A DNA stretch of 64,000 nucleotides from assembly GCA_964016885.1 (NCBI GenBank), contig OZ024740.1, forward strand, positions 164,796,001 through 164,860,000, given 5' to 3'. The notes under the pieces are model-generated. The model had not been told where the DNA came from. It ran no database searches and saw only the letters and a list, made by a program, of their open reading frames with translations. Source of the stretch: Eledone cirrhosa (Eukaryota). Both the position numbers and the translations under genes were made by a program. Positions 1 to 35,580 of this stretch are shown piece after piece (positions within the stretch are counted from its first letter, which is position 1; every line of letters begins with the position of its first letter).

Positions 1-1294
1 TGTGATACTCAAATCAGTTTGTTGCTGTGCCTGCTCACCGATCTCCCTCTGTACTGTCTGGGCATCCACCCTGCCTGGGCATTGTGTCTAACATCCTGCT
101 CCCATATTCCTCTCCAGAATGTTTTAGTTTGTTCCGCCCCAGGGATCAAGTCGTTGCCTCTTTCTTTCCCCTCAAGCTGTCCAAACAGCATCTTCTGGTT
201 GTTGTCGAACATGCGGTTCTGTTTATACTGACTGACTCTGTTCTCGTATCGTCTGATTTTTGCACTCTTTGCTACAATGCGTTGCTTCAATTCCTCTATG
301 ATAATATTTAGCTTTTTACTCCTAGTTTTGTATTTTCTTTCCAGTCTATTTTTAGTGCCTATGTTTTTTAGTGTCCCATTCATTAGTGACTCAATCTTTC
401 CTATGTCATTTCTCATTTCCCCGATTTGCCCACTCAGTCGCTTCTTCCACCACGGCTCTGCTCTTTCTTGTCTGTTGTTTCCTCTCGCTTTTATACCAAG
501 TAGTTTCCTCACCGTATTTGCTGTTGCTTTGAGGATATTGTTGCACTGGTGAAGGTTCCTCGCCTCAAGGTATGGGATGACTTTGTTTACCTTAGCTGTT
601 GTTTCTTTTAACTTTTTCCTGTCTACAAATCTTAGGTTCATAGGTCTCCCACTATCATTGTTCAATTCATCTACCACTAAATTTAGGATGTCAACCGAAT
701 CTTGTCCTAGTCCGTCAGCATTCATCTCCTCAGTGGCCGTACCTCTGTTCCAGGTATTATTTATCTCAGTATTCAGATCATTGTCTGCTTCGGGTGGTTC
801 CTCCGTTCTCAGGACCTCTTCACCTTCATTTCCCACTGGCTCGCTTGTCTGGCATACTACACCCGCCATCTCCAAGCCATTCTCTCTGCTCAGTTGCTCC
901 AGTTCCAGCTCGCTTATCCACCCATTAGTTCTTATTATCCGAGCCTGCCCGGCCAATTTTTGTTCATCTAATTTAAATAAACCAATCTCGTTCCAGATGT
1001 TATGCATCCGTCTCCTGTAGCCCCTCTCCTTGGGGTTTCTTTTCAGGTAGCATTGCATAACAGTTCTATTCAATTCTTTCGTCCAGTTGGTTCTGGCCCC
1101 TTTCCTTCTTCTTCTTCCTCCAACATCAGCAGTATTTGGTTGACAGTCAGGTTCCTGCTGCTGAGCCAGGGGGCACCTGTTGGGTGAGAGTCTGTCACAT
1201 GACGTTCTAGTCTCCATTTCACCGTTATTCGAACTGTTTATGTTCGATATTTAAACACTCTTATCGAGGATTGGCGAATGTATAGTTACATAGC

Positions 1295-1295
<1 letters not shown>
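1..1295 (-). mobile_element. 5' portion of an R4/Dong-type non-LTR retrotransposon (continues off the left edge)
   Basis: Starts directly after (TAA)n on the minus strand. ORF 9..1217 has the R4/Dong N-terminal signatures RTNWTKELNRTVMQCY, PWWKKRL..QI..MR.DI, KQRIVAKSAKIRRYENR and FWRGIWE...HN. The last two recur in the element at 14106-17935. Confidence 0.85.
9..1217 (-). pseudogene. N-terminal part of the Dong-like single ORF (pre-RT region), probably frameshifted near position 40-70
   Basis: 402-aa ORF; similarity to the 15611..16816 protein is lost after HNAQAGW. Confidence 0.75.
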
Positions 1296-1328
<33 letters not shown>

Positions 1329-1340
1329 GTTATTGTTATT
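1296..1340. repeat. (ATT)n/(TAA)n microsatellite spacer
   Basis: Read directly from the sequence. Confidence 0.95.
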
Positions 1341-1551
1341 CCTTGAATCTCAGTCATTGATGTTGGTTAACTGGAAAGTCCGTTGGATTGAATATCAAGC
1401 CACTACCTGCAGCCTCAGATATTCAGGACGTATCGGAGGGTTCTTGCTGTTCCAAGCAAGCATGCCTTTTGAAGCGTTCCAAAAAGCGTGAAGGGGCCGA
1501 TTTTCTTTGAGCATTCCCTGGAAACCTTTGGAGATAGTCCCCAGTGCGCCG

Positions 1552-1555
<4 letters not shown>
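1341..1555 (-). mobile_element. 5'-truncated R4/Dong-type 3' end (family A)
   Basis: Encodes the RLE C-terminus KKIGPFTLFGTLQKACLLGTARTLRYVLNI*, then a 3' UTR and TAA tail; near-identical to 19673-19880. Confidence 0.88.

Positions 1556-1622
<67 letters not shown>
1556..1622. repeat. (ATT)n microsatellite
   Basis: Read directly from the sequence. Confidence 0.95.
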
Positions 1623-1623
<1 letters not shown>

Positions 1624-1703
1624 CCTTACGGGGTCGATAAAATAAAGTACCAGTAATGCACTGAGTAATTGCTGGCCTTGTGCTTGTGCCTAAAGTATAA
1701 ACA
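1622..1703 (+). mobile_element. 3' fragment of tRNA-derived Nin-domain SINE
   Basis: ATCCTTACGGGGTCGATAAAATAAAGTACCAG...GGCCTTGTG...AAACA followed by an ATT tail; matches the full copies at 12601, 42568 and 60589. Confidence 0.88.
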
Positions 1704-1946
1704 ATTATTATTATTATTATCATTATTATTATTATTGTTGGTGAAACCACGCTTCTTATCGCCTCCAGTTTTTTTCAACGTTTTACCTCGTTTTCAACCG
1801 TTCTAAACCTCTTATTCAAGTTTTAAATTTGATAAAAGTTTTAAATAAGTGACCCACCTTATACAGGGTTCACTCGTAAATAATACGGCACCCCTTTACG
1901 GGGTATCGTATTTGTGCAAAAATATTTTTTGAAAAAAAAATTCAAC

Positions 1947-3935
1947 ATGGATAACACAAGAAAGAGAGAGAGCGCTGTCAGACAACACAGAGAGAGGAAG
2001 ACTTTATCAGCATGTCAACAAGACAGCGTTCCGGCGGAGGTAAATATAAACGAAAATATTACAAAGGAAAAGAGGATTGTTACAGATTTAAAATTACCAA
2101 ATATTTCTAACACATACAACACCAACAATAACACCAACAACAACACTAACAACAACAACAATAATAGTAGGAACAGTATCAACAAAAACAACAATAATAA
2201 CAACAGCCACAGTAACAGTAACAACAGCAACAGTCAGTATCAACGAAAACAACAACAACAACACCAACAATTGTACCAACGAAAACATCAACAATGACAT
2301 CGATACCTGTAACAGCGATCTCAGCACCACCAGTAAGACCAGTAGCGGCAGCAATAGTGGTGCTGCTGAAAAAGGGACCACTTCTTTTGCAGGTGTCGCC
2401 CGAAATATCGAGTCAGTGTTAGTCAAAGAGGAGGAGATGGCAGTCGCAAGGGCCATGGTGACAAGAAGCGCCAATAGAGTCTCCCTGAAATCTCCACCCG
2501 ATATTTTCAAGGACCAGCAGCTACGGATGGTGACTTACCGCACCGTAAGCAAAATCTCACATCGGGTGGCGAGAGCCACGGAGGCTCAAATCCAAAAGGC
2601 CTTGGGGTGCGTCTGGGCACGCAAAACCCACATCACCCGAGGCAGAAAGTACGCCACAGTAGATGTACATTTCGCCACCCCCCAGGAAGCGAAGTCTCAC
2701 TCTTTGGAAACCCTAAAGAGTGATGAGATAGTTTTGGTGCCCTCCTACTGCGGCAGAAAATTGTGAGGGTCAAAGTGACACAGGTTCCACCCGACGTGCC
2801 CATACCTTTGGTGGCCGCGTCTGTCCTTACTGTAATCGAGGACAGGACGACCATGCTGCAAGTAGAGAAAATAGGGAGAGAGAACTGGTCAGGTATAGGC
2901 ATGTAAATGCTTATACAAACTGACCAGGAATGTATCGACGCTATCCCCGATATCATAGACATCGATGAAGGACTCCAACTCCCTAAAAGCGTAGAAGGAA
3001 GACGGCAAAAATGTTATCTCTGTGGGTCGAAGGGTCACCTCAGGGCCTTTTGCCCGCAGAAGATAGCGAAGAAGAAGGCCCCTCTCCTTCCAATACCTGG
3101 TCCGCTGCTACCAAGAGCAGGGCAGGGAACAAACGCAGAAGCCCCTTGCACGGTGAGTAGGAGGGCAACGTCCGTGGCAGCCGTACCAAGGCCACGGACA
3201 ACTAAAGCATCAGCATCAGTGGCGGCAACACCAATAGCTAGATTTGAAGTAGCTACACCAGCAACAAAATTGCCGAAGAGGGCTCCACTACCACCACCAA
3301 CAGCCGTGGAGCACATACCCCTCCCAGGCGCCACGAATCCGACAAGGAGTTTGAGGCGGGAGTGAAGTGGCAAACGGTCTGCCACAAAAAACAAAAACCC
3401 CCAAAAAACCTTATATTCACCCTCCAAAAGCAAAGGCACACAAAGAGAGGTAAAGGCAGCAAGGAGACTTGCAGCAACACCACCACCATCACCATCACCA
3501 CCACAAGCACCACCGCCAACAACAACCACACCACCACCAGCATCACCAAAAACACCAACAACGCACACAAAACAAAACACACACACCAAACAGCAACAGG
3601 AAGAAAACAGCAACACAATCACCCCTCCCCCCAAAACGCACACAGCCATAAATATGGCAAATAAAGAACTCATACAATATATAAAGCAGCACACAGATAT
3701 CACAGAAAAAAACTACTACACCCCGCCAACACCAAAAACTCTCCTGACAAATATAAGCATCATTGAAATCTCAATAGAACAGTACAAACATTTAAAACAG
3801 AATTTCCCCAACGCAGTTGGTGACTTCAGAGTGTCGGTTACCAGGAGGATATACACTGACATCCTCTTGGAAACACCCATTACCAGCCAAAGGGACAGTT
3901 ATACTGTCCCTTCACCACACGATCAATGTAAATGA
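1947..3935 (+). pseudogene. Tx1 ORF1 (gag-like), frameshifted
   Basis: Asn-rich N-terminus, SFA motif, putative RRM-like region, CCHC knuckle CYLCGSKGHLRAFC, Pro/Thr-rich linker, and a C-terminal block shared with copies 2 and 3. Confidence 0.8.
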
Positions 3936-3967
3936 CCTTTTCTCACTTGTCCTGTTTCTCATTCAAC

Positions 3968-6666
3968 ATGGTCGTACTCAGAATAGGCAGTATAAATGCA
4001 CGTGGCCTGGGGTCATCTTGGAAGCAGGGTCACCTGTTAAACGACGTCAGTTCACTAAATATAGATGTGGAAGTCATCAGCGAAACCAGAATCTCCGAAG
4101 CACAAGCACCGATCTTCGGCGACTACGATGTATGCGCATCTCCCAGCCGTCCAGGATCGGGGGGAGGGGTTGTCGTCCTTTTTCGGAGAGGCTTGGATCT
4201 TGCCACACGGGCCATCTTCATAGACCAAGAAGGTAAGTCGGTGGTGCTGGACGTGACCGGCAGCGAAGGCAATGCGTTCAGGCTAGTAGCCGTCTACGCC
4301 CCAACAGGGGCAGGACGGCCAGATTGCTTCAGACGTCTAGAGACCTTTCTTGGAACGTCCCGCTCTTTAGTGTTAGTGGGCGACTGGAACGGTATCTTTG
4401 ATGCACGCTTGGATTGTGTGGGGCTAGTGGATAGGGGAGGAAGGTATAAGACCCTCACCAACCTGCTCAGACGTTTTGAACTGTCTGACAGGTATGGACT
4501 GGATCACCCGAATTTGCCAATGTGGAATGGACAAACCGCATCGGGTCATGGAGTTCAGTGCATACCTCGACGGACTGCCTCGGCTCTCGACGACGTAGCA
4601 CAGTGTTGCGAAAAGCCAATAACAGCCGGGGAAATACCGGAAGCGATGGCTAACTGCACGAGGGATAAATCGCCAGGTTTGAATGGTCTGCCCTACGAGC
4701 TTTATGCATTTATGCCAGACTTGTTCGGTGACCTCTTGGCACACGTCTACTGCAACTGGCAGCAGAACGGGAGCATTCCCAGTTCTGTGATCCGGGGAGC
4801 GGTGGCGCTGCTGAGAAAAGACCCGAACAAGGGGGATGTTATCGATAATTTCATGCCCAAGATTTTGGCCAAGGTATTAGCAACGAGGTTGGCACTTTTC
4901 GTCAAGTGTCTGGTGGGAGAGGCGCAAACATGCGCCATTCCGGACATATCCATATACGACAACCTCCACCTCATGCGATACATCATAGAGAGGGTGTTTA
5001 AGGAACCTGGCACGGGTGGGGCCCTGATAAACTTGGATCAATCCAAAGCATACGATAGGGTCCACCATCGGTACCTGGCGATGGTCCTCGAGGCAGCCGG
5101 TTTCGGGACCGTATTCAGGGGTTGGATCGCTGCGATGTACAGCGACATCTGCTCAGTTGTGATGGTGAACGGTCACCTGTCGCAGCCGTTCAGCATCATG
5201 CGCTCAGTCCGCCAGAGTATTCCCCTCTCATTCCTCTTGTACGTATTGCCTCTCGAGCCGTTACTGCACAAACTGGGGGTGATGAGGGGCGTCCCACGCG
5301 AAATAGGATGCGGGAAATCCGAGTAGGTTTACGCCGACGACGTCACCGTGGTGGTGTCGAGCACCAGACACGTCCAGATGCTCGGCACCGCTCTCAAAGA
5401 ATACTAAGCGTTGACAGGAGCAAAGATAATCCAGGAAACGTCGGTGGTCTTGCAGCTCGGCACCTGGAGAGACAAGTCCATGCCGTCCGACAGCGTCATG
5501 GGGCGTTGGACGGACGGACCCGTTATATTGTTCGGGGTCTGATTCGGACCGGACCTCCAGATGGAGAAAAACTGGAACGAGGTGACGAGCAAGGCGGCTT
5601 CCCTCACTCAGAAAGGGGCCGAGAGGAGGCTGTCCCTGAAAGGCCGAGTGTAGGTGGCGAATGCGTACATCGCATCCGTCATCTGCTACCGCCTTAACGT
5701 CGTCCCTTGCCTCGGCCCAACTCTCACCAAAATGGAGCGCCTCCTCTTCCGCTTTTTGTGGAGGGACGCGCTCCCATGGTCAGACTATCCATCTGCTGTC
5801 AACACCCGTTGCGTGGAGGACTGGTCATGCCATGGCTGATGATGCGCAAACATGCGCTGAGGCTGCGGCATCTCTGGTGCTTCCTTGACGGTGAACAGGT
5901 GTGGTCGCCATTCGCCAGGCACCTTTTTCCACAGCTCATCTCCTTGACGGAGCTGCAGTCCTGGGTCAGAAAAAGACCGAGTGATAGCGCTTGGAAACTG
6001 GAATGTCTCCAGGCGCTCACTACCCTCTGCCAGCTGGGCACCAGTATCGGTGGAACGTCCACCTCGGCGTTCTATAGAGGACTAGTGGAGGGGAAGAGCG
6101 ACGACGTTCTCGGAGAGATCCTGGGCATCGAAGAAGATCAGCTGTTGGCTCTCTTCCGGAGAACTTTCAGCCCAGGGCCTATGAATAACTTCCCAAAATC
6201 CCTGACCTGGCAGTGCTACCGGGAAGAGCTGCCGGTTCCAGATAAGCTCTACAGGCACGGAAGTGTCGTCAGCCGAGCCTATCCGTGATGCGTCATCCAC
6301 TCACTCGTTCTGTTCCCGAGCATTGCAGACTTGTGAAGCTATGTCGAACAGTTGCTGTCGCGTGTAGGACTGATCCGGTTATCGACTGAATCCATTGTGC
6401 CGTCTTCCTTAGAGGAGGAAGGGCAGGCGATTTTCATCTGCCTGGTGGCCATTGCGAAAGAGATTGTGTGGTGGACAAGGTTGAAAGGGTTAAAGACAGA
6501 TACTTTCCTCTTCGGCGAATCCCTAATTAACTTTTTCAAGTTTCACTTGAAGAGGAAAATCAGGGCGGAGAGGCAAGTGCTCCCTTCTAGCAAGTTTGTT
6601 GAAAGGTGGGTGAATGTAGCGAGAATGGTCCGAGTGAACGGGACCGCTCTGAATATACGCCTGTAG
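3968..6666 (+). pseudogene. Tx1 ORF2: APE endonuclease, reverse transcriptase and C-terminal Zn-binding region, with stops and deletions
   Basis: APE motifs GSINARGL, ISET, AVYAP and VGDWN; RT motifs KSPGLNGLP, DQSKAYDRV, SVRQSIPLS and YADDVTV (5329-5350); C-terminus WWTRLKGLK. Confidence 0.9.
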
Positions 6667-6958
6667 TTTGAGAAATGGAAAAATTGAGAGAGGGCGCTTG
6701 CCCTGGTTGTCAGGGTGGCCGTGGTCTTTTGTGTGGTTTTCGTCACGAGTAACCCTCGGAAGTTTCCCCCCCCCCCCATTGGGGAATTTTTCATTGTTTC
6801 AATATTCATTTTTATTGTTTACATATATGTTTCTATGTCTTTTTTTTCCTTTCTTATATAAATAATAAACATATTTACACGCACAAAACCCACATCGTAC
6901 CGTCCTGTGCCGTCTGTAATATTTTTCTTGATGTCAGCCCTTGTGGCCAATAAATAAA

Positions 6959-6960
<2 letters not shown>

Positions 6961-6993
<33 letters not shown>
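6961..6993. repeat. (ATT)n between Tx1 copies 1 and 2
   Basis: Read directly from the sequence. Confidence 0.95.
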
Positions 6994-7195
6994 GGCGACC
7001 GACGTAGTAAATCGTATCATCGTGAGCTCCGCAAAGGTTTGTTGTTTTTAGTTGTTTAAAATTGCCATTTATGGAACATTTTTATTGTTAACTGTATATA
7101 AGTGCCCATACATTGTTTTCTGAAAAGGATACTCAAATAGATTGGGGCCTAGAGCCCAAAATTTAAACTTTTATAATTATCAAAAAAAAAAAATC

Positions 7196-9110
7196 ATGGT
7201 CGAACCCAGTAGCTGAGAGCCTTCCTCACAAACTAACACCTCACACCGACACCACCATTGTAAATATTACTACGTTTGCCAACACTAAAAATATAAGCAG
7301 TAGCAATATTTTAAATTTGTCTCAGGCAGACATTCATTTCCCGCCATTACCAATGACTGCAGGTGTTGAAGATGCCACCCTCACCACTACAACACTGACA
7401 ACAGAAACACAAAAGAAAAAAATAAATTATCTCGTGATATCGAAATGAACTCTTCCACGCCGAACACAACTGAAACTAAAATTAACAATAACAAAAATAA
7501 CGATAACAACAACAGCAACAATGAAATTAAGAAAACTACCCTCAGTTTTGCCAGAGTAGCACAAACGTGCGAAGCGATCCAAGTAACTCAGCAGGAATTA
7601 GAAGCGAAAAGAATGGTAAAGAAAGTTGGTACAGGGTCAGATTACCCCCCCCCCCCCCACTCACACACACCTAATAAAATGGAGCATCGTCGCCTATGCA
7701 CTGTGTCTTATCGGACAGTTAACATAAAATCGCGCCGAGTGGAACGGACATCGGAGTCCCAAATCCAAAAAGCTTTGGGACATGTGTGGGCAAAAAAACC
7801 CCACATCAAACGTGGGCAGAAATATGGAACCGAGGACGCGTTCTTTGAAACACCAGAGGAGGCCAGAGAACACTCCATGGCCCCATTAAGAAGTGACGAC
7901 TTCACACTCGTCTCAAGCTATTGTAGCCAGAGACTCGTGAAGATCAGGGTGACCCACGTTCCACCGGTCATCGAAATTCCCTGGTTAATGGCTGCCGTCC
8001 TCGCCGGCATCGAGGCCAACACCAAGTTAATCGAAATAGCGAAAGAAAAGCAGGAGAACTGGTCCGGATCTGGGATGGAGCTCCTGATCCAAGCGGACCA
8101 AAAAAACATTAAGGAAATTCCGGAGGTGATAGACCTCAATGACGGCAGCCAGCTCACCGTAATCGTCGAGGGCAGAAGGCCTAGGTGTGTCGCAGTGGTG
8201 AAGGAACCCACCTAAGGGCTTTCTGCCCTCAAGCTAAAAGGTTGAGGCCCCCTCTCTTACCCATCCCAGTGACTCAACCATCAACACCACCAGCATCAGA
8301 GATGGCAGCAACAACTGTAGCAGCAACAACAGAAGCAACTGTAACAGCAACAACCGCAGCAACAGTAGCAAAACGAACACCACCACCACCACCAGCAAAA
8401 CCAACACCACCACCACCCAACGCGCCAGAACTAGCACCAGCGCCTACACCATCCACCACGCCACAACCAAAACCAACGCCTGTGGAGGATTTTCCACTCC
8501 CCAGCTTATTGCAACTGGAGACAGATTGTGACGAAGAGGATAAGGAAACGGTATCAGAAAGTAAGAAAAAAAGAAAAAATTCTCTTTCTTCCACCTCCAA
8601 AAACAAAATACAGAGGGAAACAAATAAACTATCAAACATAAAGTTAGGACAGATATGCCACCATCCACACCAGCATCACCAATCCCATCACCACAAACAC
8701 CAACACCATCACCATCATTAACCCCAACACCACCATCACCAACACCACAAAAGTCACCAAAAAGCGAAACAGAAACAAACCCACAACAAACGCAAACAAA
8801 ACAAAACAACCAAAACGATATACACTACACAGCATTAAATTTGAACAACAACCAATTATTACACTACATCCAACACAACACCAGCATCACAGAAAAGAAT
8901 ACACAACAACCCAAAAGTTCACACCACCTCCACACATACAAATCACTCGCATCACACAGAAAACATACACGACAATAAAACAAAAATTCACCAAAGACAT
9001 CGGAGACTTCCGACAAACACTCTCCAGGAGGATTTATAAGGACATCCTGCCGGAGAAGGCCACGAGCAGTGAAAAGGATGGACAAACCATCCTTCCTCTA
9101 CGAGAAGTAA
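7196..9110 (+). pseudogene. Tx1 ORF1 (copy 2), frameshifted
   Basis: SFARVA, YRTVNIKSRRVERTSESQIQKALGHVWAKKPHI, knuckle remnant ..GEGTHLRAFCP, Pro-rich linker. Confidence 0.8.
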
Positions 9111-9149
9111 GGTAAGTGGTCTTTCCCATCTTTTCCACTCCATTTCAAC

Positions 9150-12100
9150 ATGACCTCACTCAGAATAGGCAGCATAAATGCCCGTAGATTGGGGTCGTCA
9201 TGAAAGCAGGGCCACCTGCTCAACGACCTCAGGTCACGAAACATAGATGTAGTGGCCATCAGCGAGACCAGAATCTCCGAAGCATGGGCCTGATTTCTTC
9301 CGGCGTCTGGAGACCTTTCTTGGAACGTCCCGCTCTTTAGTGTTAGTGGGCGACTGGAATGGGATCTTAGATGCACGCTGGGACTGTGTGGCATTAGCGG
9401 AAGAGGGTGCAAGAGCCTCACCAACCTGCTCAGGCGTTTTAAACTGTCCGACAGGTACCGATTGGATTTCCTGAATGTGCCAATGTGGACTTGGACAAAT
9501 CGCATAAGGTCATCCAGATCATATCTAGATAGAGTTTTTGTAGGGAAATAGATAGGTCTAGCATAGGCTGTCCACAATTCAAGATAGTCAGCTACACGAA
9601 CCACAAATTCATGATCTGTGTGCTTGACTTAGATAGGCGTCATAGACGAGGACCCGGCTACTGGAAGCTAAACGCGTCCATACCAGCGCGCAAGGCCTAC
9701 AGAGACCAGATTAGCGAACTAGTTAAGCGGGCGTTGACGGGGGCCATCGTCAACAACATGTGGTGGCTTGCTCTGAAAAGATCAATTAGAATAGAGTCCA
9801 TCAGGTTTAGTAAGGCTTTAGCAATAGAGATAAATAGAGCAGAGGGATAATTAGTTAGAAAATTAGACGAGGTGCTTAGCAAAGGCATCGCGACCGACGT
9901 ACTTGCGGCGAAATTTGTCCTTGACCAATTCTTCAATTCAAAGCACGAAGGCTGCGTTGTCAGAGCTAGGGTGCGTGCTTTCAGACACGAGGGGACGAAA
10001 GCTGTTCAATGGGCCCTAGTGGAGGAGGCGTGTCGTGGCAACAAAGCCACAATCCGGTCTTTGGTGGACCACGACGGGCACATGCTACTCGATCCCGGGC
10101 AAATGTGTGAAGCTTTTCAGCGACACTTCGCACAGTTGTTCGAGGGCAGCAGCGGGCCGGATCGAGGGATGGACTTTAGTGTCTACCTCGACGGACTGCG
10201 GCGGCTCTCGGCCACTGAGGCGGAGTGTTGCGAAAAGCCGATAACAGCCGCTGAAGTACGAGAAGCAATGATTGGCTGCACAAGGTGTAAATCGCCTGGT
10301 TTGGATGGTCTGCCCTATGAACTTTACGTACAGATGCCAGACTTGTTCGGAGGCCTCTTGGCGGACGTCTACTGCAACTGGCAACAGAACGGGAGAATTC
10401 CCAGCTCTGTGAGCCGACGAGCTGTGGCGCTGCTGAGAAAGGATCCGAACAACGGGGATAACATAGATAATTTTAGGCCCATAACTCTGCTAAACACAGA
10501 GTTCAAGATTTTAGCCAAGGTGCTAGCAAATAGGTTGGCGCTCATCGCTGGTGGTCTGGTGGGACAGGAGCAGACATGTGCCATTCCCGACAGATCCATC
10601 CACGACAACCTCCACCTCATGCGATACATCCGGTAGCTAGGGAACCTGGCACGGGTGGGTCCTTGATCAATTTAGATCAGTTGAAAGCTTTCGATAGGGT
10701 CGACCATCGTTACCTAGCGGCAGTCCTGAGGGCGGCCGACTTTGGACCCGTCTTCAGAGGCTGGATCGCTGCCATGGACACCGACATCTGCTCTGTGACG
10801 AGAGTGAATGGTCACCTTTCGAAACCGTTCAACATCATGCGCTCGGTCCGTCAAGGATGTCCCCTCTCGTCCCTCTTGTACGTATTGACTCTCGAGCCAT
10901 TACTGCACAAACTGGAGACGTTGAGGGGGGGGGGTCCCCCGCGCGAACTAGGATGCGGAATATCCGTGTCAGAATATGCGGACGATGTCACCGTAGTGGT
11001 GTCGAACGCCAAACACATCGAGGGGATCGGTACTATACTAAGAGAATACGAAGCGGTGATAGGAGCAATGATCAACCAGGAAAGGTCAGTGGGCCTGCAG
11101 CTCGGCACCTGGAGTGGCAGGTCCATGCCGTCCAACAGCGTCGTCGGGCGCTGGACGGACGGACCGGTTAAATTGCTCGGGGTCTGGTTCGGTCCTGACC
11201 ACCAGACGGACAAAAACTGGGACGAGGTGACGAGTAGGGTGGCTTCTCTCACCCAGAAATGGGCGGAGAGGAAGCTATCCCTGAAAGGTCGAGCGGAGGG
11301 GGTTAACGCGTTCATCGCGTCGGTCATCTACTACCGCCTGACCGTCGTACCTTGTCCTAAGCCCCGCCTGACTGCGCTAGAGCGTTTGCTCTTTCTCTTT
11401 TTGTGGAAGGGACGCGCTCCGATGGTCAGGAGGTCCATCTGCTGTCAACACCCGCTACGTGGAGGGCTGGGATGCCGTGGCTGATGATGCGCAGACACGC
11501 ACTCAGGCTACGACATCTCCACCTCTTCCTCGACGGTGATCAGGTGTGGTCGCCGTTTGCTAGACGCATCTTTCCCAGCTCGTCTCCTTGACGGAGCTGC
11601 AGTCATGAATCAAGCGAAGACTGAGCGGGAGCGCTTCGAGACTGGAATGTCTTCAGGCGCTCATAGCCCTCGACTAATCGGGCAATGTGATCGGTGGAAA
11701 CTCCACCTTGGCGTTCTATAGAGGATTAGTGGAGGGGAAGAGCGACGACGTACTTGGGGAAACTCTAGGCACCGACGAAAATCAACTAGCCAATCTCTTC
11801 GGAAGAACTTTCGGGCCGGGGCCTATGGACAACTTCCAGAAATGCCTGGCCTGGCAGTGCTACCGAGGAGCTTTGCCTGTTCGGGATAAACTCTACAGGC
11901 ATGGAGGTGCCGTCACCTGAGCATGTCCGAGATGCGCGCAGAGCGACGAAACCGTCCTGCACGTACTCGTCCAGTGTCCGAGCATTGCTGACTTGTGGGT
12001 TTATGTCGAACACCTGCTGTCGCGTGTAGGACGGATCCAGCTATCAGCTGAGTCCATCGTGAGGATTGCCCCGCCCTCTTCCTTTAGCCGGGAAGGACAG

Positions 12101-12340
12101 GCAGGTTTTATCTGTCTGGTGGCCATCGCGAAAGAGATAGTATGGTAGACACGTTTGAAAGGGCTGAAGACGAGCACTTAGCTCTTCAGTGATGCCCTGA
12201 TTAACCTTTTCAAATTTCATTTGGAAAGGAAAATCATGGTAGAGAGGGAAGTGCTCTCTTCCCAGCATTGTGTTGAAAGATGGGTGAGAGAGGCATGAAT
12301 GGCCCGAGTGAATGAGCCTACTCTGAGTATGTGTCTGTAA
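9150..12340 (+). pseudogene. Tx1 ORF2 (copy 2): APE with an internal deletion, RT and C-terminal Zn region
   Basis: GPGYWKLNAS, NFRPITLLNTEFKILAK, DQLKAFDRV, VRQGCPLS, YADDVTV and CPRCAQSDETVLHVLVQC. Confidence 0.9.
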
Positions 12341-12600
12341 ATTAAAGGTGGAAAACTGGGAGAGGGCACTCGCCCTGGTGGTCAGGGTCACTGTGGCTTT
12401 TTAATGGGCTTTCTCCACGTATGTCCCTCGGAAGTCTCGCCCCTATTGGGGAATTTTTTCACAGTTCTATTATTACATCCTCTGTTTCTTGTTTTTTTTA
12501 CACACAGAAATTCTCTTTTGTACCGTCCTGTATTATCCTGTACTGTCCTTAATGGCTACTTTTTGTAAACCCTTGTGGTTAATAAAGAAAGCATTATAAT

Positions 12601-12780
12601 GGTGGATTGACAGTATCGGTAGAGAGTCGGACGCCATGCTTTCCAGCATAGTTACGTCCCTTTACGGTTTGAGTTCAAATCCCACCGAGGTTCACTTTGC
12701 CTTTCATCCTTACGGGGTCGATAAAATAAAGTACCAGTAATGTACTGGGTTATTGCTGGCCTGTGCCAAAAGTAGAAACA
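12601..12780 (+). mobile_element. tRNA-derived Nin-domain SINE, near full length (octopus OR1/OK-like)
   Basis: A-box-like TG(A)CAGTATCGG, B-box GAGTTCAAATCC, Nin/Deu-type core GCCTTTCATCCTTACGGGGTCGATAAAATAAAGTACCAG, ATT tail. Confidence 0.88.
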
Positions 12781-12801
12781 ATTATTATTATTATTATTAT
12801 T

Positions 12802-13037
12802 ACAGTTGCATTTATCTTGCTTTATGTTCATGCGAGTTATCACCAAGTCACAACCAGTGACCTCAAGAGACAACAAGGTCCGCCATGTTCAAGAAAGAAC
12901 ATACATACACACACATGCATCTTTAGATGTTTAGACTTGTGATGTACATATATTGACAGAATCTTCCTTAGTATATGGGCAGTTCCCATTAGTACTATCT
13001 TTTGTATTTTTACTATACGCAGGTTTCCTGGGATTTG
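12802..13037 (-). mobile_element. 5'-truncated Dong-type 3' end (family B)
   Basis: Encodes IQKIVLMGTAHILRKILSI plus a 3' UTR matching 14106-14335. Confidence 0.9.
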
Positions 13038-13101
13038 TCGATAAAATAAAGTACCAGTTATATACTGGATAATTGCTGGCCTTGTGCCTAACGTAGAAAC
13101 A
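13038..13101 (+). mobile_element. Nin-SINE 3' fragment fused to the preceding Dong fragment
   Basis: TCGATAAAATAAAGTACCAG...GGCCTTGTGCCTAACGTAGAAACA followed by ATT. Confidence 0.88.
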
Positions 13102-13129
13102 ATTATTATTATCATTATTATTATTATTA

Positions 13130-13208
13130 CAGTTGCATTTATCTTGTTTTATGTTCATACGAGTTATCACCAAGTCACAACAAGTGACTTCAAGAGACAA
13201 CACGGTCC
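13130..13208 (-). mobile_element. Extreme 3' tip of Dong family B
   Basis: About 75 bp matching 14106-14180 and 12802-12880. Confidence 0.85.
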
Positions 13209-14070
13209 TGGGCATCGAAGAAGATCAGCTGCTTGCTCTCTTCCGGAGAACTTTCAGCCCGGGGCCTATGGATAATGTCCAAAAATCCCTGGCCTGGCAG
13301 TGCTACCGGGGAGCGCTGCCGGTTCAGGATAAGCTCTACAGGCATGGAAGTGCCATCAGCCGAGCCTGTCCGAGATGCGCGCATAGCGACGAAACCGTTG
13401 TGCACGCACTCGTTCAGTGCCCGAGCATTGCTGACTTGTGGAGCTATGTCGAACAGTTGCTGTCACGTGTGGGACTGATCCGGTTGTCGACTGAGTCCAT
13501 TGTGCAGATGGTCTCGCCGTCTTCCTTTGAGGAGGAAGGGCAGGCGGTTTTCATCTGCCTGGTGGCCATGGCGAAAGAGATTGTGTGGTGGACAAGGTTA
13601 AAAGGATTAAAGACAAACACTTTCCTCTTCGGCGAATCCCTGATTAACTTTTTCAAGTTTCACTTGAAGAGGAAAGTCAGAGTGGAGAGGCAAGTGCTGC
13701 CTTCTAGCAAGTTTCTTGAAAGGTGGGTGAATGTAGCGAGAATGGTCCGAGTGAACGGGACCACTCTGAATATACGTCTGTAGTTTGAGAGATGGAAAAA
13801 TTGAGAGAGGGCGCTTGCCCTGGTAGTCAGGGTGGCTGTGGTCTTTTGTGTGGTTTTCGCCACGAGTAACCCTCGGAGGTTTCCCCCCTATTGGGGAATT
13901 TTTCATTGTTTCAATTTTCATTTTATTGTTTATATATATATATGTTTTATGTCTTTTTTCTTTTCTTATATAAATAATATAAATATTTACACGCACAAAA
14001 CCCACATCGTACCGTCCTGTTCCGTCTGTGATGTTTTTCTTGATGTCAGCCCTTGTGGCCAATAAAGAAA

Positions 14071-14072
<2 letters not shown>
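13206..14072 (+). mobile_element. 5'-truncated Tx1 subfamily-1 copy (ORF2 C-terminus and 3' UTR)
   Basis: Closely matches 6119-6960; intact CPRCAHSDETVVHALVQC; ATT tail at 14073-14105. Confidence 0.92.
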
Positions 14073-14105
<33 letters not shown>

Positions 14106-17100
14106 GCATTTATCTTGTTTTATGTTCATACGAGTTATCACCAAGTCACAACCAGTGACCTCAAGAGACAACAAGGTCCGCCATGTTCAAGAAAGAACAT
14201 ACATATTCACTCATGCATCTTTAGTGTTTAGATTTGTGATGTACTTATATTGACAGAATCTTCCTTAGTATATGGGCAGTTCCCATTAGTACTATCTTTT
14301 GTATTTCTCCTATACGCGGGTTTCCTGGGATTTGCGATATGTAATCATTAGACCCCTTATGTACCATTCCCAGAGCGCCTACAACCACTGGTATTGTTTT
14401 AGTTCTCAATTTCCACATTTTTCCAATTTCTATCTCCAGGTCCTTATACTTGCTCAATTTTTCTAATGTTTTTATAGATACATTCTTGTCTATTGGAACA
14501 AACAGATCAATTAGCAGGCATACCCTCTTTTGAAAGTCCTTCAATATTATATCAGGTCTATTTGCATCTATTTTTCGGTCTGTTTGGATGCTAAAGTTCC
14601 ACAAGATTGAGATGTGATCTTTTTCAAGTATGGGAGGTGGTTGATGCTCCCACCAATTCTTTTGATGGGGCAGGTCAAAATGCTTACACATTATCCACTG
14701 TATGTATTGTGCAGCTCTGTCATGCCTGTTTAGGTATTCGGTTGGAGCTATAGGACTGCACATTGAAATTATATGGTCAATGGTCTCTGGTTGTTTCTTG
14801 CATACACGGCATAATGGGTTGCACCCATTTTTTATTATGTTGGCTTGATAATTTTTTGTTGGCAGACACTGATCTTGTGCTGATATAAAAAGTCCTTCAG
14901 TCTCCGATTTCAGTCCAGAGGATGCCAACCACTGATGGGTTAAAATTTTGTCAACATCAGGATTGTTAGCTCTTTCTGGGTATTTTCCATACAGAGGCTT
15001 TTCTTGCCATTTCTTAGCCAGTTTCTGTAGCAGTTCTTTCTTTGCAGTTACTTTTACCTGCTTTGCTTTTTCTGTGTTTTCCATTTCAGCAGTAAATGGG
15101 ACTTCTGAAATTTGTAGTCCCTTACTGTATCTTTGTGCATCTTTTGTAATGGAATATGATATTTTGATGCTTTCGTGTTTCAAAACGAGTTTGATCATCC
15201 AATCATGTGATTCCCTTAGATATGTAGATAATCCAATTGTTGCAGTTTTCAACGCAATGTCTAACTGGATTAACCCACGTCTCCTTCTTTCCTAGGGAGA
15301 TATATTCTATCTATATCTGCCTTAGGGTGATGTATTCTGTTCATGGTTAAGAATTTTCGAATTTTTGTATCGAGCCTACGGATCTCTGTGCTTGACCAGT
15401 TGATGACATTGTAACTGTAGGTTACTACTGGTATGGCAAGCATGTTTATGGCATCGATCCTATTCCTTGCATTCAATTCTGTTCTTAAGATTGTTCTTAC
15501 TCTGCGGTAACATTCCTTCCTTATCCTTTCCCTCATTGTCGAGTGCTTGATTCCGTCTCCTTCACAAACACCTAGATATTTGTAAGTTTTTTCTTGATCA
15601 AGTTCTCTTATCACGTTCCCCCGATCAGCAGCTTTCCTCTGGTGAACGTTGCTTCGGCGCATTTATCTAGTCCAAACTCCATTTTAATGTCATCACTGAA
15701 CTGCTCCACAGTAGATAATAGCCCTTGCAATTGTTCATCATTTTTTGCAAATAGTTTCAGGTCATCCATGTAGAACAGGTGATTAATGGTTTTGTCATAG
15801 ACTTTATATCCATGTTTTGTTTCATTGAGCATTTTACTTAATGGTATAAGTGCGATGCAGAATAAAAGCGGTGATAAAGAGTCACCCTGAAAAATTCCAC
15901 AATTAATATTAACTTCTCCAGCTTCCAGTGATTTTTTTTCACTATTCAAAAGGAGTGTCGTTTTCCATGTCTTCATACTGAATGACAAAAACCTCCTGAC
16001 AACGGGGGATATTTTGAAAATCTCTAAACATTTTTCAATCCAACTGTGTGGCAAACTATCGAATGCTTTTTTATAATCTATCCAAGCAATCGATAGATTT
16101 TTGTGTCTATTATGACAATCTTCCAGTATCATTTTGTTAACCAGAAGCTGATCCTTACAGCCATATGAGCCTCGTTTACACCCTTTCTGCTCAATGGGAA
16201 ATAGGTCATTTGTTATCAGGTGGTCATATGTGTATTCAGTTAGGACTGATGTTAAAATTTTATACATTGTGGTCAAGCAAGTTATCGGTCTGTAATTTTT
16301 GGGATTGTTTGTCTCATCATTCTTCGGAAGCAGGAATGTAATGCCGTTAACTAGCCATGATGGTATCTTTTCTGGCTCCTTAACTATTTCATTGTAAAGT
16401 TGGGCTAACAGCTCATGAGACTCTGTGAAGGCATTTATCCAAAAGTTTTGTAATTTGTCTTTTCCTGGGGATTTCCATTTGCTGGTTTTTCTTAGAGCCA
16501 AGCGCAACTGTTCAACTGTTATATTTTCCCATATTTGTTCCTCAAGGTGAGCTGTATCTTTCATTTGTCTGTCTATCCATGGGGCATGAATGTTATGAAC
16601 TTTTTCTTCGGCCCAGATCTTTTCCCAGAATTCTTGTACTTCCTCCTTGGGTGGTATTGATTTAGCAGTTATTGTTGACTTACCAATTTTTCTGTAGAAG
16701 TTTCTTTGGTTGTTTTTGAACATATTATTGTCCTTATAGAATCTAGATCGCTTTTCAAAGCGCCTTATACGACCAGCTTTGGCCGACACTTTTTGCTTGA
16801 TTATTTCTATCAGCATGCCTATGTCACATGTTAATTTTATACTGTACTTTTTTTCAATTTTCTAAGTTTAGTTTGTTTAACATGTTCGCCTACTTTATAG
16901 TTTGTTAAAATTTCTATGTCAGATCGGAGAAGGTTTATTTGGCGATTGATGTTCTCTTGCCAAGTAGATTTCTTGTGGGAATTCCTTTGTTTTTTCATCT
17001 TCACTCCACATAAGTGAGTGGTGACTTTAGCCGATGCATAATAGAGATGATTTAAATCAGTAATGTTTAGTTTGTTTGTGATGATAATGTTTTTGAGAAT

Positions 17101-17935
17101 TATGTTAGTCTTGTGTATTATCTTTTGGTTCTGTTTGGAGTTCTGGATCTTAGGGAGGGCGTCTCTTGCCCCATGTCAGATTCTTTCATTTTCATCCATT
17201 CGATCATAATTTCATCCTTCAAGTTGGCAAGTTCATTCTCATTCATTTCTTTATCATTTACGATCTCATTATTTTCATTTGGAGTTTCATCCTGAGAATG
17301 CACTCCCTCCACTTTTTCGATCCTTTCTTTAATTTGTTCTGTTGCCAGTGATTCCGCCAATTCTTACAATATTTCTTCGTATATTGGCTAGTTTGTTACT
17401 GTCAATATAGCCTCTGTTCTAGGGATGTTTCTTTTTCCAGTTGATATATGTCTCTTCTGTATTCGATGTATTTGATGGGTAGTACATGGCAGTGTAGAAA
17501 GCCTCAAGGACTTCTTTATTATCTTCCCTTGACCATTTTTCTCTCTTTTTCTTTGGATTCCTTGGTGGTGAGCATGGAGGGCCAACAGTAGGAATATTCC
17601 GGTTATGGGAGGTCTCCAGCTTCGAAGTGATGGGAAGGTTTGAACCATTAGCTGATTTTTCGACCCCAGTCTGGTTCCTCTCTGAGGGACGCGGCCCTTT
17701 TACCCGGGTGACGGCCGATCCGGTATGAGATTTTATCATTAGACATTTACTTTATTTTGTCGCGTTTTATCCTTACCCGCCAAGGGGTAATCATTTCGTG
17801 TTACCACTTCTAGAACGAGTGTCAACCAAGACTAGAGGGGTCGTTCTCCCCTAGAGACACGGCTATTCCCCGCCGGCCGCCATCCCGGTATTTCTTGGTC
17901 ACGGGGTTTTCTTTTTGTTGTTTTATTTAAATTGT
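14106..17935 (-). mobile_element. R4/Dong-type non-LTR retrotransposon, near full length (family B)
   Basis: Single frameshifted ORF (about 17740 to 14245): KKREKWSREDN; RT motifs NYRPITCL, WIDYKKAFDS, GIFQGDSLSP and HLFYMDDLK; CCHC CRVCKKQPETIDHIISMC; RLE RPDI...LLIDLFVP...EKLSKYKDL; TAA tail. Confidence 0.92.
14245..16816 (-). pseudogene. RT, CCHC and restriction-like endonuclease of Dong family B (three overlapping ORF pieces)
   Basis: ORFs 15611..16816, 15270..15662 and 14245..15252. Confidence 0.9.
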
Positions 17936-17992
17936 TATTATCATGAGTGGTTCCTTAATGTGAGCATTGCGTGGCTTAAGAATGAAATTATT

Positions 17993-18043
17993 AATAATTG
18001 TCTCCACTTCAGGCACAAGGCCAGCAATCACCCAGTGCATTAC
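17993..18043 (-). mobile_element. Nin-SINE 3' fragment
   Basis: Reverse complement reads GTAATGCACTGGGTGATTGCTGGCCTTGTGCCTGAAGTGGAGACAATTATT. Confidence 0.8.
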
Positions 18044-18902
18044 AATAATATAATATACTTTTTGTTGTAGTTGGCTGTTATTGTTGTTGGCTATGTCGGT
18101 GGTGGGGCCGGGGCTTATTATATTGTCGGTGAGGAAGGGGTGAGCCAGCAGTCACATAGTTGTTGATGTTGACGTTTGGCCGGTGGCCAGGTCACTAAGT
18201 CAATCTATTTATATCTTTTGCTAGCCTCTCCCTTGTCTAGTGATACCGCCAACTTCCCCTTTCTCTCTCAAGTTAACAGGGGAATAGTGGTGGTAGCAAT
18301 GAAGGAGTGGTGGCAGCGGCGATGGGATAGTGGTAGCAGTGATGGATTGGGTGGGGTGGTGGCAGCGGTGGCGTTGTGGTTACTGATATGTAGTATCTAT
18401 GAGTTTGTGTTCGTATGTTTAATATATATTTTTATTATATATTGTGTTGACATATTCCCGTAAAATTGGAATTAAACATTTTGTTAAAATTTGAGACAAT
18501 AATAATAGTAATTATTATTATGATGCTGGGATTGATGGTGGTGGTGGTGAAATTGCCGTTATCTGGCTGTTATATTTAGTGTGATGGGATAGGTGGTGTA
18601 TCAAGTTTTTGGTGTTAGTGAAATTGCTGTTATTTGGCTGTTATATATAGTGTAGACAGAGGGTGTTTTCTTCCATTTATAACCATTTTCTTTTTTTGAA
18701 TACAAAATATATAATACAAAATTGAATATTTGTGCGATACAACAATATAATATGGATCCGAAACTTTATGGGACCTCATTCGGTGGTTTATGCAACATTT
18801 GTACTAAGAATTGTTATTTCACAATTGATTTAAATATGTTAAAAATCAAAAACTTACGGGAGCGATTTTATGACTTTCTACCACCTCGTGCGTCTTCTTC
18901 CC

Positions 18903-18958
<56 letters not shown>
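18903..18958. repeat. (ATT)n microsatellite
   Basis: Read directly from the sequence. Confidence 0.95.
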
Positions 18959-19622
18959 GTTCTTTCAGTTTCAGTCATTGATGTTAGTTAACTGGAAAGT
19001 TTGTTGAAATGAATATCAAGCCACTACCTGCAGCCTCAGATATTCAGGGCGTATCGGAGGGTTCTTGCTGTTCCCAGCAAGCATGCCTTTTGAAGCGTTC
19101 CAAAAAGCGTGAAGGGGCCAATTTTCTTTAACCATCCCTGGAAACCTTTTGAGATAGTACCTAGTGGGCCTATGACAATCGGGACCACTTTGACTTCATG
19201 GCAGTTCCAAATCCTATTTACCTCCCACTTTAAGTCCTGGTATCGGTTAATTTTCTCCCTCTCTTTCTCTTGCACTCTCGTGTCGAATGGGCAGGCCACA
19301 TCCACAATCAGGCACGACCTTTTTCCTTGTCCAAAACCACCAGGTCAGGTCTATTGTGTTCCAGTTTCTTGACCGTCTGTATCCTAAAATCCCATAGCAC
19401 CTTCACCTGATCGTTTTCTATCACCGACTCTGGCTTATACTCATACCACTTCTCAGAATGTTTACTTTGCATAGGTGCCAGTGGATAACCCTGTCCATCA
19501 CATCATGTCTCCAGCCTTTATAGTGAGCCTGGGCTAGGTGTTTACACTCGGATACAATGTGAGCCACAGTCTCCTCTCTCTCTCCACAGATCCTGCACAG
19601 TGGGCTAGCCTCCTCTTTGTAA
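18959..19622 (-). mobile_element. 5'-truncated Dong family A copy (CCHC and RLE)
   Basis: CRICGEREETVAHIVSEC, WDFRIQT, DVACPFD..EKINRYQDL, LQKACLLGTARTLR. Confidence 0.9.
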
Positions 19623-19623
19623 A

Positions 19624-19663
<40 letters not shown>

Positions 19664-19672
19664 GTTGTTATT

Positions 19673-20037
19673 CCTTGAATCTCAGTCATTGATGTTGGTT
19701 AACTGGAAAGTCCGTTGGATTGAATATGAAGCCACTACCTGCAGCCTCAGATATTCAGGACGTATCGGAGGGTTCTTGCTGTTCCAAGCAAGCATGCCTT
19801 TTGAAGCGTTCCAAAAAGCGTGAAGGGGCCGATTTTCTTTAACCATCCCTGGAAACTTTTGGAGATAGTCCCCAGTGCGCCTATGACAATCGGGATCACT
19901 TTGACTTCATGGCAGTTCCAAATCCTTTTCACCTCCCACTTTAGGTCCTGGTATCGGTTAATTTTCTCCCTCTCCTTCTCTTGCACTCTCGTGTCGAACG
20001 GGCAGGCCACATCCACAATCAGACACGATCTTTTTTC

Positions 20038-20038
<1 letters not shown>
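19673..20038 (-). mobile_element. 5'-truncated Dong family A copy (RLE)
   Basis: ORF 19747..20016; flanked by (ATT)n at 19623-19672 and 20039-20112. Confidence 0.9.
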
Positions 20039-20105
<67 letters not shown>

Positions 20106-20112
20106 TATTATT

Positions 20113-22297
20113 GGCGACCTCCGGAGGAAATCGTATTATCGTGAGCTTCGCAAAGGTTTGTTGTTTTCAGTTGTTTCAAATTGCCAGTCATGGAAAATGT
20201 TTGTAGTTAAGTGTTTATAAATTCACATATATTGCTTTCTGAAAAGGACACTAAAAAAGATTGGGGCCTTGAGTCCAAAATTGAAACTTTTATAATTATC
20301 AAACAAAAACTTTCTTTGAAAAAAACCTGGCGCCTCACAGCCATACAAATCTGACAGTCTTCCTTACAAACTAACACCTCACACCAACACCACCATTGTA
20401 AATATTACTATGGTTGCGAATACTAAAAATATAAGCAGTGGCAATAATTTAAATTTGTCTCATGCAGACATTCATTTCCCGCCATTGCCAATAACTGCAG
20501 GTCTTAAAGGCGCCACCCCCACCTCCACAGCGACAACAGAAACAAAGAAAAATAAATTATTATCTCGTGACATCGAAATGGATTCACCCAGAATCGACTC
20601 TTCCACGCCAAACACCACTGACGCCACCACCACCACCACCACCACCACCACCACAACTGAAACTAAAAATAACAATAACAAAAATAACAATAACAACAAC
20701 AGCAACAACAACAATGAGAATAACAAAAACAACATCAACAACAGTTCAAAACAAAATGTGTCGTTTGCCAAAGCAGCCAAGCAAAGCGAAACAATCGAGG
20801 TAAGCCAGGATGAATTAAATTAAGCCAAGAGAATGGTAAAAAAAAGATGGGTACAGGGTCACCCCCCATCTAACAAAATGGAGCATCGGCGCCCATGCAC
20901 CATGTCATATCGGACAATAAACACAAAATCACGTCCAGTTGAACGGGCATCCGAGTCCCAGACACAAAAAGCTTTTGGACATGTGTGGGCGAAAGAAAAC
21001 CCACATCAGACGTGGGCAGAAATATGGAACCGTGGACGTGTTCTTTGGAACACCACAGGAAGCCAGAGAGCACTCCATGGCCCCATTAAGAAGTGACGAC
21101 TTCACACACGTCCCAAGCTATTGTGGTCAGAGACTCGTGAAGATCAGGGTGACCCACGTTCCATCCGCCATCAAAATTCCCTGGCAAATGGCTGCCGTCC
21201 TCGCCGGCATAATAATTGAAGCAACAAAAGATTTGAAAAGTAACGAAAATAATTGAAGTAACAAAAGAAAAGCAGGAGAACTGGTCCGGATCTGGGATGG
21301 AGCTCCTGATCCAAGTGGACCAAAAAAACATTGAGGAAATTCCAGAGGTGATAGACCTCAATGACGGCAGCCACCTCACTGCCAATCGTTGAGGGTAGAA
21401 GGGCTAGGTGTGTCGTTTGTGGTGAAGGAACCCACATAAAAGCTTTCTGCCCTCAGGCTAAGAAGTTGAGACCACCTCTCCTACCCACCCCAGTGACTCA
21501 ACCATCAACACCACTAGCAGCAGAAATGGCAGAAACAACTGTAGCAGCAACAACAGAAGCAACTGTAGCAGAAACAACCCCAGCAACAGTAACAAAACCA
21601 ACACCACAACCACCCACCGCGCCAGAATTAGCATCAGAACCTCCATCATCCACCACGCCACAACTAAAACCAACGCCTGTGGAGGATTTTCCACTCCCCG
21701 ACCTATCGCAACTGGAGACAGATTGTGACGAAGAGGAGTGGGAAACTGTATCAAGAAAAAGGAAAAAAAGAAAAAGGACCCAAAAAACAAAAAATCTTCT
21801 TCCTTCCACCTCTAAAAACAAAATGCAGGGGGAAACAAATAAACAAACAAAAAAAGTTAGGACAGCTATTCCACCATCCACACCAGCATCACCAATCCCA
21901 TCACCACAAACAACAACACCATCACCATCATTAACCCTAACACCACCATCACCAACACCACAAAAGTCACCAAAAAGCGAAACAGAAACAAACCCACAAC
22001 ATACGCAAAAAAAAAACAACATTAAATTTGAACAACAACCAATTATTATACTGTTACCAATTATTACACTACATCCAACGCAACACCAGCATCACAGAAA
22101 AAGACTACACAACACCCCAAAAATTCACACCACCTCCACACTTACAAATCACCCGCATCACACAGAAAACGTACACGACACTAAAACAAAAATTCCCCAA
22201 GGACATCGGAGACTTCCGACAAACATTCTCCAGGAGAATTTATAAGGACATCCTTCCGGAGGAGGCCACAAGCAGTGAGAAGGATGGAAAAACCATC
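20113..22297 (+). mobile_element. Tx1 subfamily-2 copy 3: 5' UTR and ORF1 only, 3'-truncated
   Basis: Colinear with 6994-9090; knuckle CVVCGEGTHIKAFC; similarity ends abruptly near 22297. Confidence 0.88.
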
Positions 22298-23310: not shown

Positions 23311-23882
23311 ATATTTGCTAGCATGGGTATGCATCGGTATATATATGTTGGTAGATATACTAATTCTTTATAATTATCTCCAAATTATTTTGTTGAGCAA
23401 AAATTTGCCAAAACTGTACTATAGTTCATAGTAATAGTTCGGCTACTGTCTTCTTAACACTGATTAACCTCGGTGTCACGTGATTGATTCTTTTGAATTT
23501 GCCACCGACCAAGTAGGCAGTGACTTTTACAATGTCTTGGAATTTAGTCCACGCTTGCTTTTTTCCATCCACTGAATTATTTTTGTATAAGTTCCCTGTG
23601 TCCACGCATCGCCTGGGAACTTAGCTGAGAATTGACTTCCTGATGACGAAAGGCATTCTCCATGTGTTCCATTCGGAAACCATGTTTATTCCCTTTCAGA
23701 AACTAATTAGTTGGAGTGAAATTTTAGTAAGTAAGTTAATTTTTACAATTTTCTTATTTTACGTCTTTCATATAATTGTTCTGCATCCCCTTGCATTGAA
23801 CCACAAAGTTACTAAGACAAAACCTATATATTTGCTAGCATGGGTATGCATCTGTATATATATGTTGGTAGATATACTAATT

Positions 23883-35574: not shown

Positions 35575-35580
35575 ACTATA

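Follow-up and report, generated by a model that had tools for sequence, protein, structure and literature searches.

A strand-sorted array of retroelements from two endonuclease classes along an ATT microsatellite of the octopod Eledone cirrhosa

How do retroelements of two unrelated endonuclease classes come to lie along a single trinucleotide repeat, each class on a strand of its own? The question is raised by a 64-kb stretch of the octopod Eledone cirrhosa (assembly GCA_964016885.1, contig OZ024740.1, positions 164,796,001 to 164,860,000; hereafter the window), the first 22,297 positions of which had been described in an earlier note, made from the letters of the DNA, as about 15 insertions separated mostly by (ATT)n. 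Using self-alignment, translation and family searches, we find 14 locus-level retroelement pieces in 1-22297 (Table 1): seven long interspersed elements (LINEs) of the Dong/R4 type, four Tx1-like LINEs and three short interspersed elements (SINEs). Ten of the 13 junctions between them are ATT runs of 22-74 bp, as the note had it for most, one consists of five repeat letters, and two are without repeat. All 11 perfect runs of at least 12 bp in 1-22297 read ATT on the plus strand and none reads AAT; they form the ten spacers (442 bp), and the remaining 41.7 kb of the window holds one such run. The strand assignments of the LINEs were borne out in full, with the Dong/R4-type pieces on the minus strand (7/7) and the Tx1-like pieces on the plus strand (4/4), and the locus-level SINEs are likewise on the plus strand (3/3); the note had counted three of four SINE pieces there, which holds as a count, the minus-strand piece being part of the leader of a Dong element. 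The array is real and well ordered, and it is sorted by strand without exception.

We consider it probable that the 14 pieces were inserted separately, by two machineries that are unrelated and would prime on opposite strands of one ATT tract. In target-primed reverse transcription the strand that serves as primer is the one opposite to the RNA. The restriction-like endonuclease (RLE) of the Dong/R4 elements would accordingly be predicted to nick first the TTA-reading strand, the free end of which would pair with an RNA ending in UAA units, and the apurinic/apyrimidinic-type endonuclease (APE) of the Tx1 elements to nick first the AAT-reading strand at ATTAT, for pairing with an RNA ending in AUU. 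The SINE, which has a Tx1-type hairpin and reads ATT in its own sense, would use the Tx1 machinery; the Tx1 LINEs would favour long tracts although their minimal site would be ATTAT; and most insertions leave repeat on both sides, so that each class would renew the site for itself and for the other. The note had proposed two lineages that converged on one trinucleotide and prime from opposite strands, and of this the shared repeat and the opposite polarity are observed, the nicking of opposite strands being what the standard priming model predicts.

Shared use of the tract is supported by the ends of the elements. All six Dong 3' ends that can be seen in the array continue into (TAA)n in element sense, as had been noted, the seventh lying beyond the window, and 5/7 Dong 5' ends adjoin the same repeat; the three 5'-truncated copies of the family labelled Dong-A all abut it despite differing break points (214, 366 and 665 bp). 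The spacer at 1555-1623 is flanked by two 5' ends, and is therefore not the 3' tail of either neighbour. On the plus strand three of the four Tx1 5' ends abut the ATT repeat, namely the three full-length ones, which adjoin runs of 33-74 bp, and two families, Tx1-A and Tx1-B, are joined tail to head by (ATT)11 alone (6961-6993). For the Tx1 3' ends, said in the note to run into ATT, this is true of two of the four (33 bp each); in one, a SINE follows after only five letters of repeat (12592-12597), and the copy that starts at 20113 lacks a 3' end and breaks off into unrelated sequence towards the close of ORF1 (~22297). Set beside the criterion of PMC4494074, more than 20% of flanks in one repeat, 3/4 of the 5' ends and 3/3 of the 3' ends present carry the repeat here, at one chosen locus.

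The junction of Tx1-B with ATT appears to be a trait of the family. In sequencing run X4, possibly the window's own sample, the summed depth is 74,845 over the pure ATT at 6982-6991 versus 76,095-96,982 at 7062-7111, which, beside a depth of 7-19 for single contigs of that run, points to the family as a whole. No other letter is listed over 6982-7017, there is no loose end near 6994 among the 9 of 56 listed, and in the X4 contigs the four ATT units ahead of the Tx1-B 5' end are covered as deeply as the family; two X1 contigs likewise run through ATT upstream of Tx1-B, and run X7 had no contig aligned over 6982-7281. The earlier note had held that 5' flanks poor in ATT would speak against targeting, and for Tx1-B the flank is ATT.

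The Tx1 and SINE pieces likely depend on one machinery, as judged from a hairpin common to their 3' ends. A CTTGT loop stands 16 nt before ATTA in 3/3 Tx1 3' ends and 8/11 SINE ends, one of the other SINE ends being without the loop and two having altered tails, and the stems differ in sequence yet all pair (GCC/GGC in Tx1-A, AACC/GGTT in Tx1-B, GGC/GCC in the SINE). Stems of at least three pairs are found in 10/14 ends versus 17/135 CTTGT sites in the window, those ends included. The same 3' structure, the same distance and the same target, which together make the stringent criterion for a SINE-LINE pair, are thus all found at the level of sequence. The SINE at 42562-42754 is flanked by a 17-bp duplication that starts with ATTAT one base after the SINE end, so that ATTAT was present before the insertion; the minimal site is likely ATTAT, with long tracts as the richest substrate. 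No tRNA gene was called in the SINE head. At 35396-35767 on the minus strand, two SINE copies stand head to tail, linked by the ATTATTAT tail of the first copy, a miniature of the array.

Several points weigh against two machineries sharing one tract. The chance that the 11 LINE pieces would be sorted onto the two strands by class is 0.001 when counted per piece; counted by five families it is 0.06, which is not significant. Two of the 13 junctions have lost the repeat and the right end of the array has none, so that the note's claim that each insertion regenerates target on both sides holds for most insertions only. Depth in run X4 does not measure copy number and varies between 293 and 307,397 along 300 bp, hence no fraction is given; the contig analysis of junctions covered Tx1-B, and contigs look alike whether the ATT tract was there beforehand or came with the RNA as a leader. 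The X4 junction depth is indeed compatible with a carried leader, the only 5'-truncated Tx1 is without ATT on its 5' side, and the Dong-A 3' ends have variant repeat units in common next to the element, so that some of the repeat is element-coded. These three observations would suit an array in which only Dong targets the repeat, Tx1 bringing an ATT leader and tail and the SINE an ATT tail, with Dong piling in and the tails setting the polarity. We regard this as improbable, given four Tx1 pieces of two families in one tract, two of them joined with nothing else between, and a SINE duplication that marks the motif as target. It is also improbable that Tx1 has a loose preference for ATTAT or AT-rich DNA, without microsatellite specificity, and collects in long tracts because these are motif-dense and harmless. 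None of the seven SINE copies outside the array has at least four ATT units on either side (0/7), and their 3' ends all run into ATTAT or ATTGTTAT, which fits such a preference and is a further point against our reading; set against it are the Tx1-B 5' ends, which cover at least four ATT units at family-level depth, and the long runs at 3/3 full-length Tx1 5' ends in the window. Finally, the placement of the plus-strand LINEs in the Tx1 clade is by architecture and similarity, not by tree.

The polarity could also be set by RNA pairing alone, neither nuclease picking a strand and the tract breaking or being cut on both. At the Tx1 3' ends, which are precise, there is no poly(A) in spite of an AATAAA a short way upstream; this fits an RNA ending in read-through AUU that would pair with the nick, and the two repeat-less joins, with their short microhomology, fit break repair; however, the endonuclease is held to be the main determinant of target choice (PMC4494074) and the 17-bp duplication fits staggered nicks, which leaves pairing alone very unlikely. 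An array made by tandem duplication or misassembly is less likely still. A unit of SINE end, ATT and Dong-B end is present twice and 89.5% alike in self-alignment, and no read was seen to span the entire locus, but the 5' break points differ, five families are involved, and the two short Dong-B pieces are closer to the full copy (4.4% and 4.2%) than to each other (6.6%). Copies diverge by 2.4-10.7% within families, which rules out a young tandem duplication and indicates that insertion at this site recurred over a long period; every long copy in the window is broken.

The two junctions without repeat are of one kind: at 13036/13037 and 13205/13206, within 170 bp of each other, the 5' break of a minus-strand Dong-B is joined head to head to the 5' break of a plus-strand SINE or Tx1-A, with short microhomology. 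Read plainly, these are target deletions during insertion or products of later repair. An extension of the preferred two-machinery reading, which we consider unlikely, is that both machineries acted at the same break: the joins would be twin-primed, with Dong RNA at one end and Tx1 or SINE RNA at the other and the cDNAs joined via 3-6 bases of microhomology, and arrays would feed back into elements, the Dong-B leader being a captured older array and ATT tracts a shared niche. If true, octopod ATT tracts would be a self-renewing niche in which retrotransposons of the RLE and APE classes work together and exchange parts.

The minus-strand SINE piece, at 17993 in the earlier note, had been taken for an insertion at a place where the repeat flips. 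This did not stand: the supposed flip at 17987-17998 has only two units on each side, and a family contig of run X1 runs from 17361 to 18230, across the SINE piece, on which ground an insertion at this locus was rejected. The X1 contigs agree with the majority letter of X4 at almost every one of the 40 places listed and differ from the window copy of Dong-B at 28/1485 and 9/1203 letters, and hence represent the family rather than this locus. Summed X4 depth along Dong-B is 526,488 at the 3' end, 110,640 at 17786-17945 and 43,678-65,880 over 18106-18902; the stretch 18044-18902 is thus itself high-copy, and its reading as unrelated filler was rejected. Three X4 joints, of depth 15-48, are without the SINE piece, and run X10, with 5 reads only over Dong-B, gave no information. 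Dong-B likely begins at 18902, directly at the ATT run, with the SINE piece as part of its leader, which leaves the strand rule without exception.

The leader (17743-18902) is composite, with low-complexity stretches beside the SINE 3' fragment, and its positions 17900-17993 loosely resemble a Tx1 3' end on the plus strand. X4 depth roughly halves across 17990. The leader may have been captured from an older array, or may mark two subfamilies. The X1 family contig has 124 extra letters between 17358 and 17361 that are absent from the window copy, which otherwise lies about 1-2% from the family.

As to the identity of the minus-strand elements, Dong-B has a single open reading frame (ORF) with a reverse transcriptase (RT, PF00078) followed by CxxC..H..C and RPD..LLID motifs that align with full-length relatives. 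An intact relative (P0005) matches R2 proteins only among PDB structures, and the nuclease pieces of the window alone gave no meaningful match there. The C-termini of Dong-A and Dong-B are 38% identical, and the 413-aa frame of Dong-C is 35% identical to Dong-B and 24-37% identical to the N-terminal portions of its full-length relatives; the Dong-A family may have Dong-C as its 5' end. The Dong N-terminal region, a candidate for a Myb/SANT-like domain, is 37-49% identical to the N-termini of relatives, and Pfam gave no match on 17422-17751 and 9-1247, the Myb/SANT-like domain included. No named Dong or R4 reference is among the 120 matches listed, and with no named Tx1 among the listed matches either, the clade names rest on architecture and target. 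For an HDV-like (hepatitis delta virus-like) ribozyme at the Dong-B 5' end there was no Rfam match, no match to a strict descriptor and no unusual fold, in copies that are decayed and with a descriptor run without positive control. An eighth, decayed element resembling Dong relatives lies outside the array (61650-63615, minus strand); its 3' end is CA-rich and without (TAA)n, and it is probably another family with another target or none.

The plus-strand LINEs have two ORFs, with a CCHC knuckle in ORF1 and APE, RT and a C-terminal zinc domain in ORF2. PF00078 and PF13966 were above the curated Pfam cut-off and PF03372 and PF00098 below it; intact relatives have PF03372, PF00078 and PF13966 together. 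One relative (P0125, 53% identical to the window RT) matches L1 ORF2p at E 7e-68 versus 1e-21 for R2, which puts the Tx1-like pieces nearer to L1 than to the remaining groups of LINEs, and the best named match of the RT is from Argonauta hians (68%). The best structure match of the nuclease was the LTX entry (E 6e-11 versus 3e-09 for L1), which we take to be an L1 nuclease with a Tx1L loop, and which is a hint only; no named Tx1 was found among matches or cluster members. A metagenome scan with the Tx1 alignment returned 525 loci, the best 80 of which are all distant (23-43% identity), uninformative for close kin, and have no ATT or TTA run of at least 18 bp (0/80); viral contigs held no Tx1 relative, and the Tx1 3'-end pattern had no match in genome and viral contigs.

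Some of this has precedents. Dong on (TAA)n has been reported in insects, molluscs and cnidarians (PMC7998251; PMC3812793), and the polarity seen here is that of the primer at the Bombyx Dong 5' junction (PMC3774820); PMC3812793 puts Dong among APE elements, in conflict with PMC7998251 and with the nuclease motifs found here. The nearest described elements are Dong of Bombyx mori, DongAg, DongBg and Darwinula Dong1/2 of the R4 clade, from which the present array differs in that two or three Dong families share the tract with APE elements, that Dong-B has a 1.15-kb leader with a SINE fragment, and that the 5' HDV-like ribozyme of Bombyx Dong (and R4) was not found on the decayed Dong-B copies. 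Published Tx1 targets include TC, TTC, TTCC and TTTC (PMC4494074), and Kibi on (TC)n, Koshi on (TTC)n and the crocodilian Tx1 on (TTCC)n and (TTTC)n are likewise APE-type elements of the L1 group in microsatellites (PMC4494074; PMC3812793). Compared by target, (ATT)n, or (TTA)n, is one base per unit away from that of Koshi; the octopod host and the partner SINE with the same 3' hairpin set the present elements apart. Two families in one tandem repeat, in opposite orientation and in mixed arrays, are known from SART and TRAS of Bombyx mori (PMC10088271). Those are both R1-clade APE elements in telomeric repeats, whereas here RLE and APE clades meet on an interstitial trinucleotide; with L1-group and R2-group proteins and ATT as target, the present elements work alike but are not members of that system. 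R1 and R2 in 28S rDNA are also APE and RLE lineages that converge on one multicopy target, but at separate sites, in the same orientation and without renewing each other's site.

In the literature searched, with Repbase and the supplements of PMC4494074 outside its scope, we found neither a Tx1 on ATT or TTA nor an array that mixes Dong with Tx1. Already known are the use of (TAA)n by Dong and the sharing of one repeat in opposite orientation (SART/TRAS); what the search did not return is a Tx1 that uses (ATT)n, or a repeat shared by elements of different endonuclease classes. An ATT-targeting Tx1 may be described in Kojima and Fujiwara 2004, in those supplements or in Repbase. The Tx1 group likely gains a new microsatellite target and a partner SINE, and with two unrelated nucleases on one three-base duplex, the choice of strand, by nuclease or by RNA pairing, becomes testable in one assay. 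In Octopus vulgaris Dong-R4 (1129 insertions) and L1-Tx1 (421) rank with the most abundant LINEs of recent activity (PMC13282606, the available text of which gives no targets for either), and in O. bimaculoides a short-read caller detected very few new Dong sites (PMC9115989). If fresh insertions go into the repeats that separate older copies, as the Eledone array would suggest for these other species, short-read callers would miss part of them, which bears on claims of LINE activity in octopus brain.

Table 1. Retroelement pieces and spacers of the array, in window coordinates (UTR, untranslated region)
Feature	Position	Strand	Remarks
Dong/R4-type LINE 5' part, Dong-C	1..1295	-	413-aa frame; 5' end adjoins (TAA)n; 3' part beyond window
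(ATT)n spacer	1296..1340	+	
Dong-A, 5'-truncated, 214 bp	1341..1554	-	both ends in repeat
(ATT)n spacer	1555..1623	+	bounded by two 5' ends
SINE, 5'-truncated	1624..1703	+	
(ATT)n spacer	1704..1736	+	
Tx1-A: ORF1 CCHC knuckle, ORF2 APE, RT and C-terminal zinc domain	1737..6960	+	PF00098 weak, PF03372 weak, PF00078; self-alignment
(ATT)11, without any Dong, between the tail of Tx1-A and the head of Tx1-B	6961..6993	+	
Tx1-B, full span, broken	6994..12591	+	about 20% from Tx1-A
SINE, full length, inserted in Tx1-B tail	12598..12780	+	
(ATT)n spacer	12781..12802	+	
Dong-B 3' piece, 234 bp	12803..13036	-	5' break meets SINE without repeat
SINE 3' piece	13037..13101	+	
(ATT)n spacer	13102..13129	+	
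Dong-B 3' piece, 76 bp	13130..13205	-	5' break meets Tx1-A without repeat
Tx1-A 3' piece, 867 bp	13206..14072	+	PF13966 E 7.7e-09; 7.3% from first Tx1-A
(ATT)11 between two 3' ends	14073..14105	+	
Dong-B, full span, one frameshifted ORF: RT, CCHC, PD..D nuclease motif	14106..18902	-	PF00078 E 2.6e-28
Dong-B leader, about 1.15 kb (likely)	17743..18902	-	depth gradient and bridging contig
SINE 3' fragment carried in Dong-B leader	17999..18043	-	X1 contig spans 17361-18230
(ATT)n spacer at Dong-B 5' end	18903..18958	+	
Dong-A, 5'-truncated, 665 bp	18959..19623	-	
(ATT)n spacer	19624..19672	+	
Dong-A, 5'-truncated, 366 bp	19673..20038	-	
(ATT)n spacer	20039..20112	+	bounded by two 5' ends
Tx1-B-like copy, 5' UTR and ORF1 only	20113..22297	+	10.7% from Tx1-B; no 3' end, no closing repeat

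To the right of the array 25 longer frames were checked and had no Pfam family, hence no host gene was placed, and the sequence into which the last Tx1 breaks (22298-23800) has no repeat partner within the window. The first Tx1-A is interrupted by frameshifts and stop codons and has an internal deletion at about 4557. Scars of A-to-G editing between copies showed no clear excess overall; in the Tx1-A pair (6119-6420 versus 13206-13500) the first 300 bases of the alignment hold 11 A/G differences versus 2 of the G/A kind, a possible trace of RNA editing. Between ORF1 and ORF2 of Tx1-B a splice-donor-like motif is followed by a pyrimidine tract (9110-9119), which is also seen, in weaker form, in Tx1-A (3926-3933).

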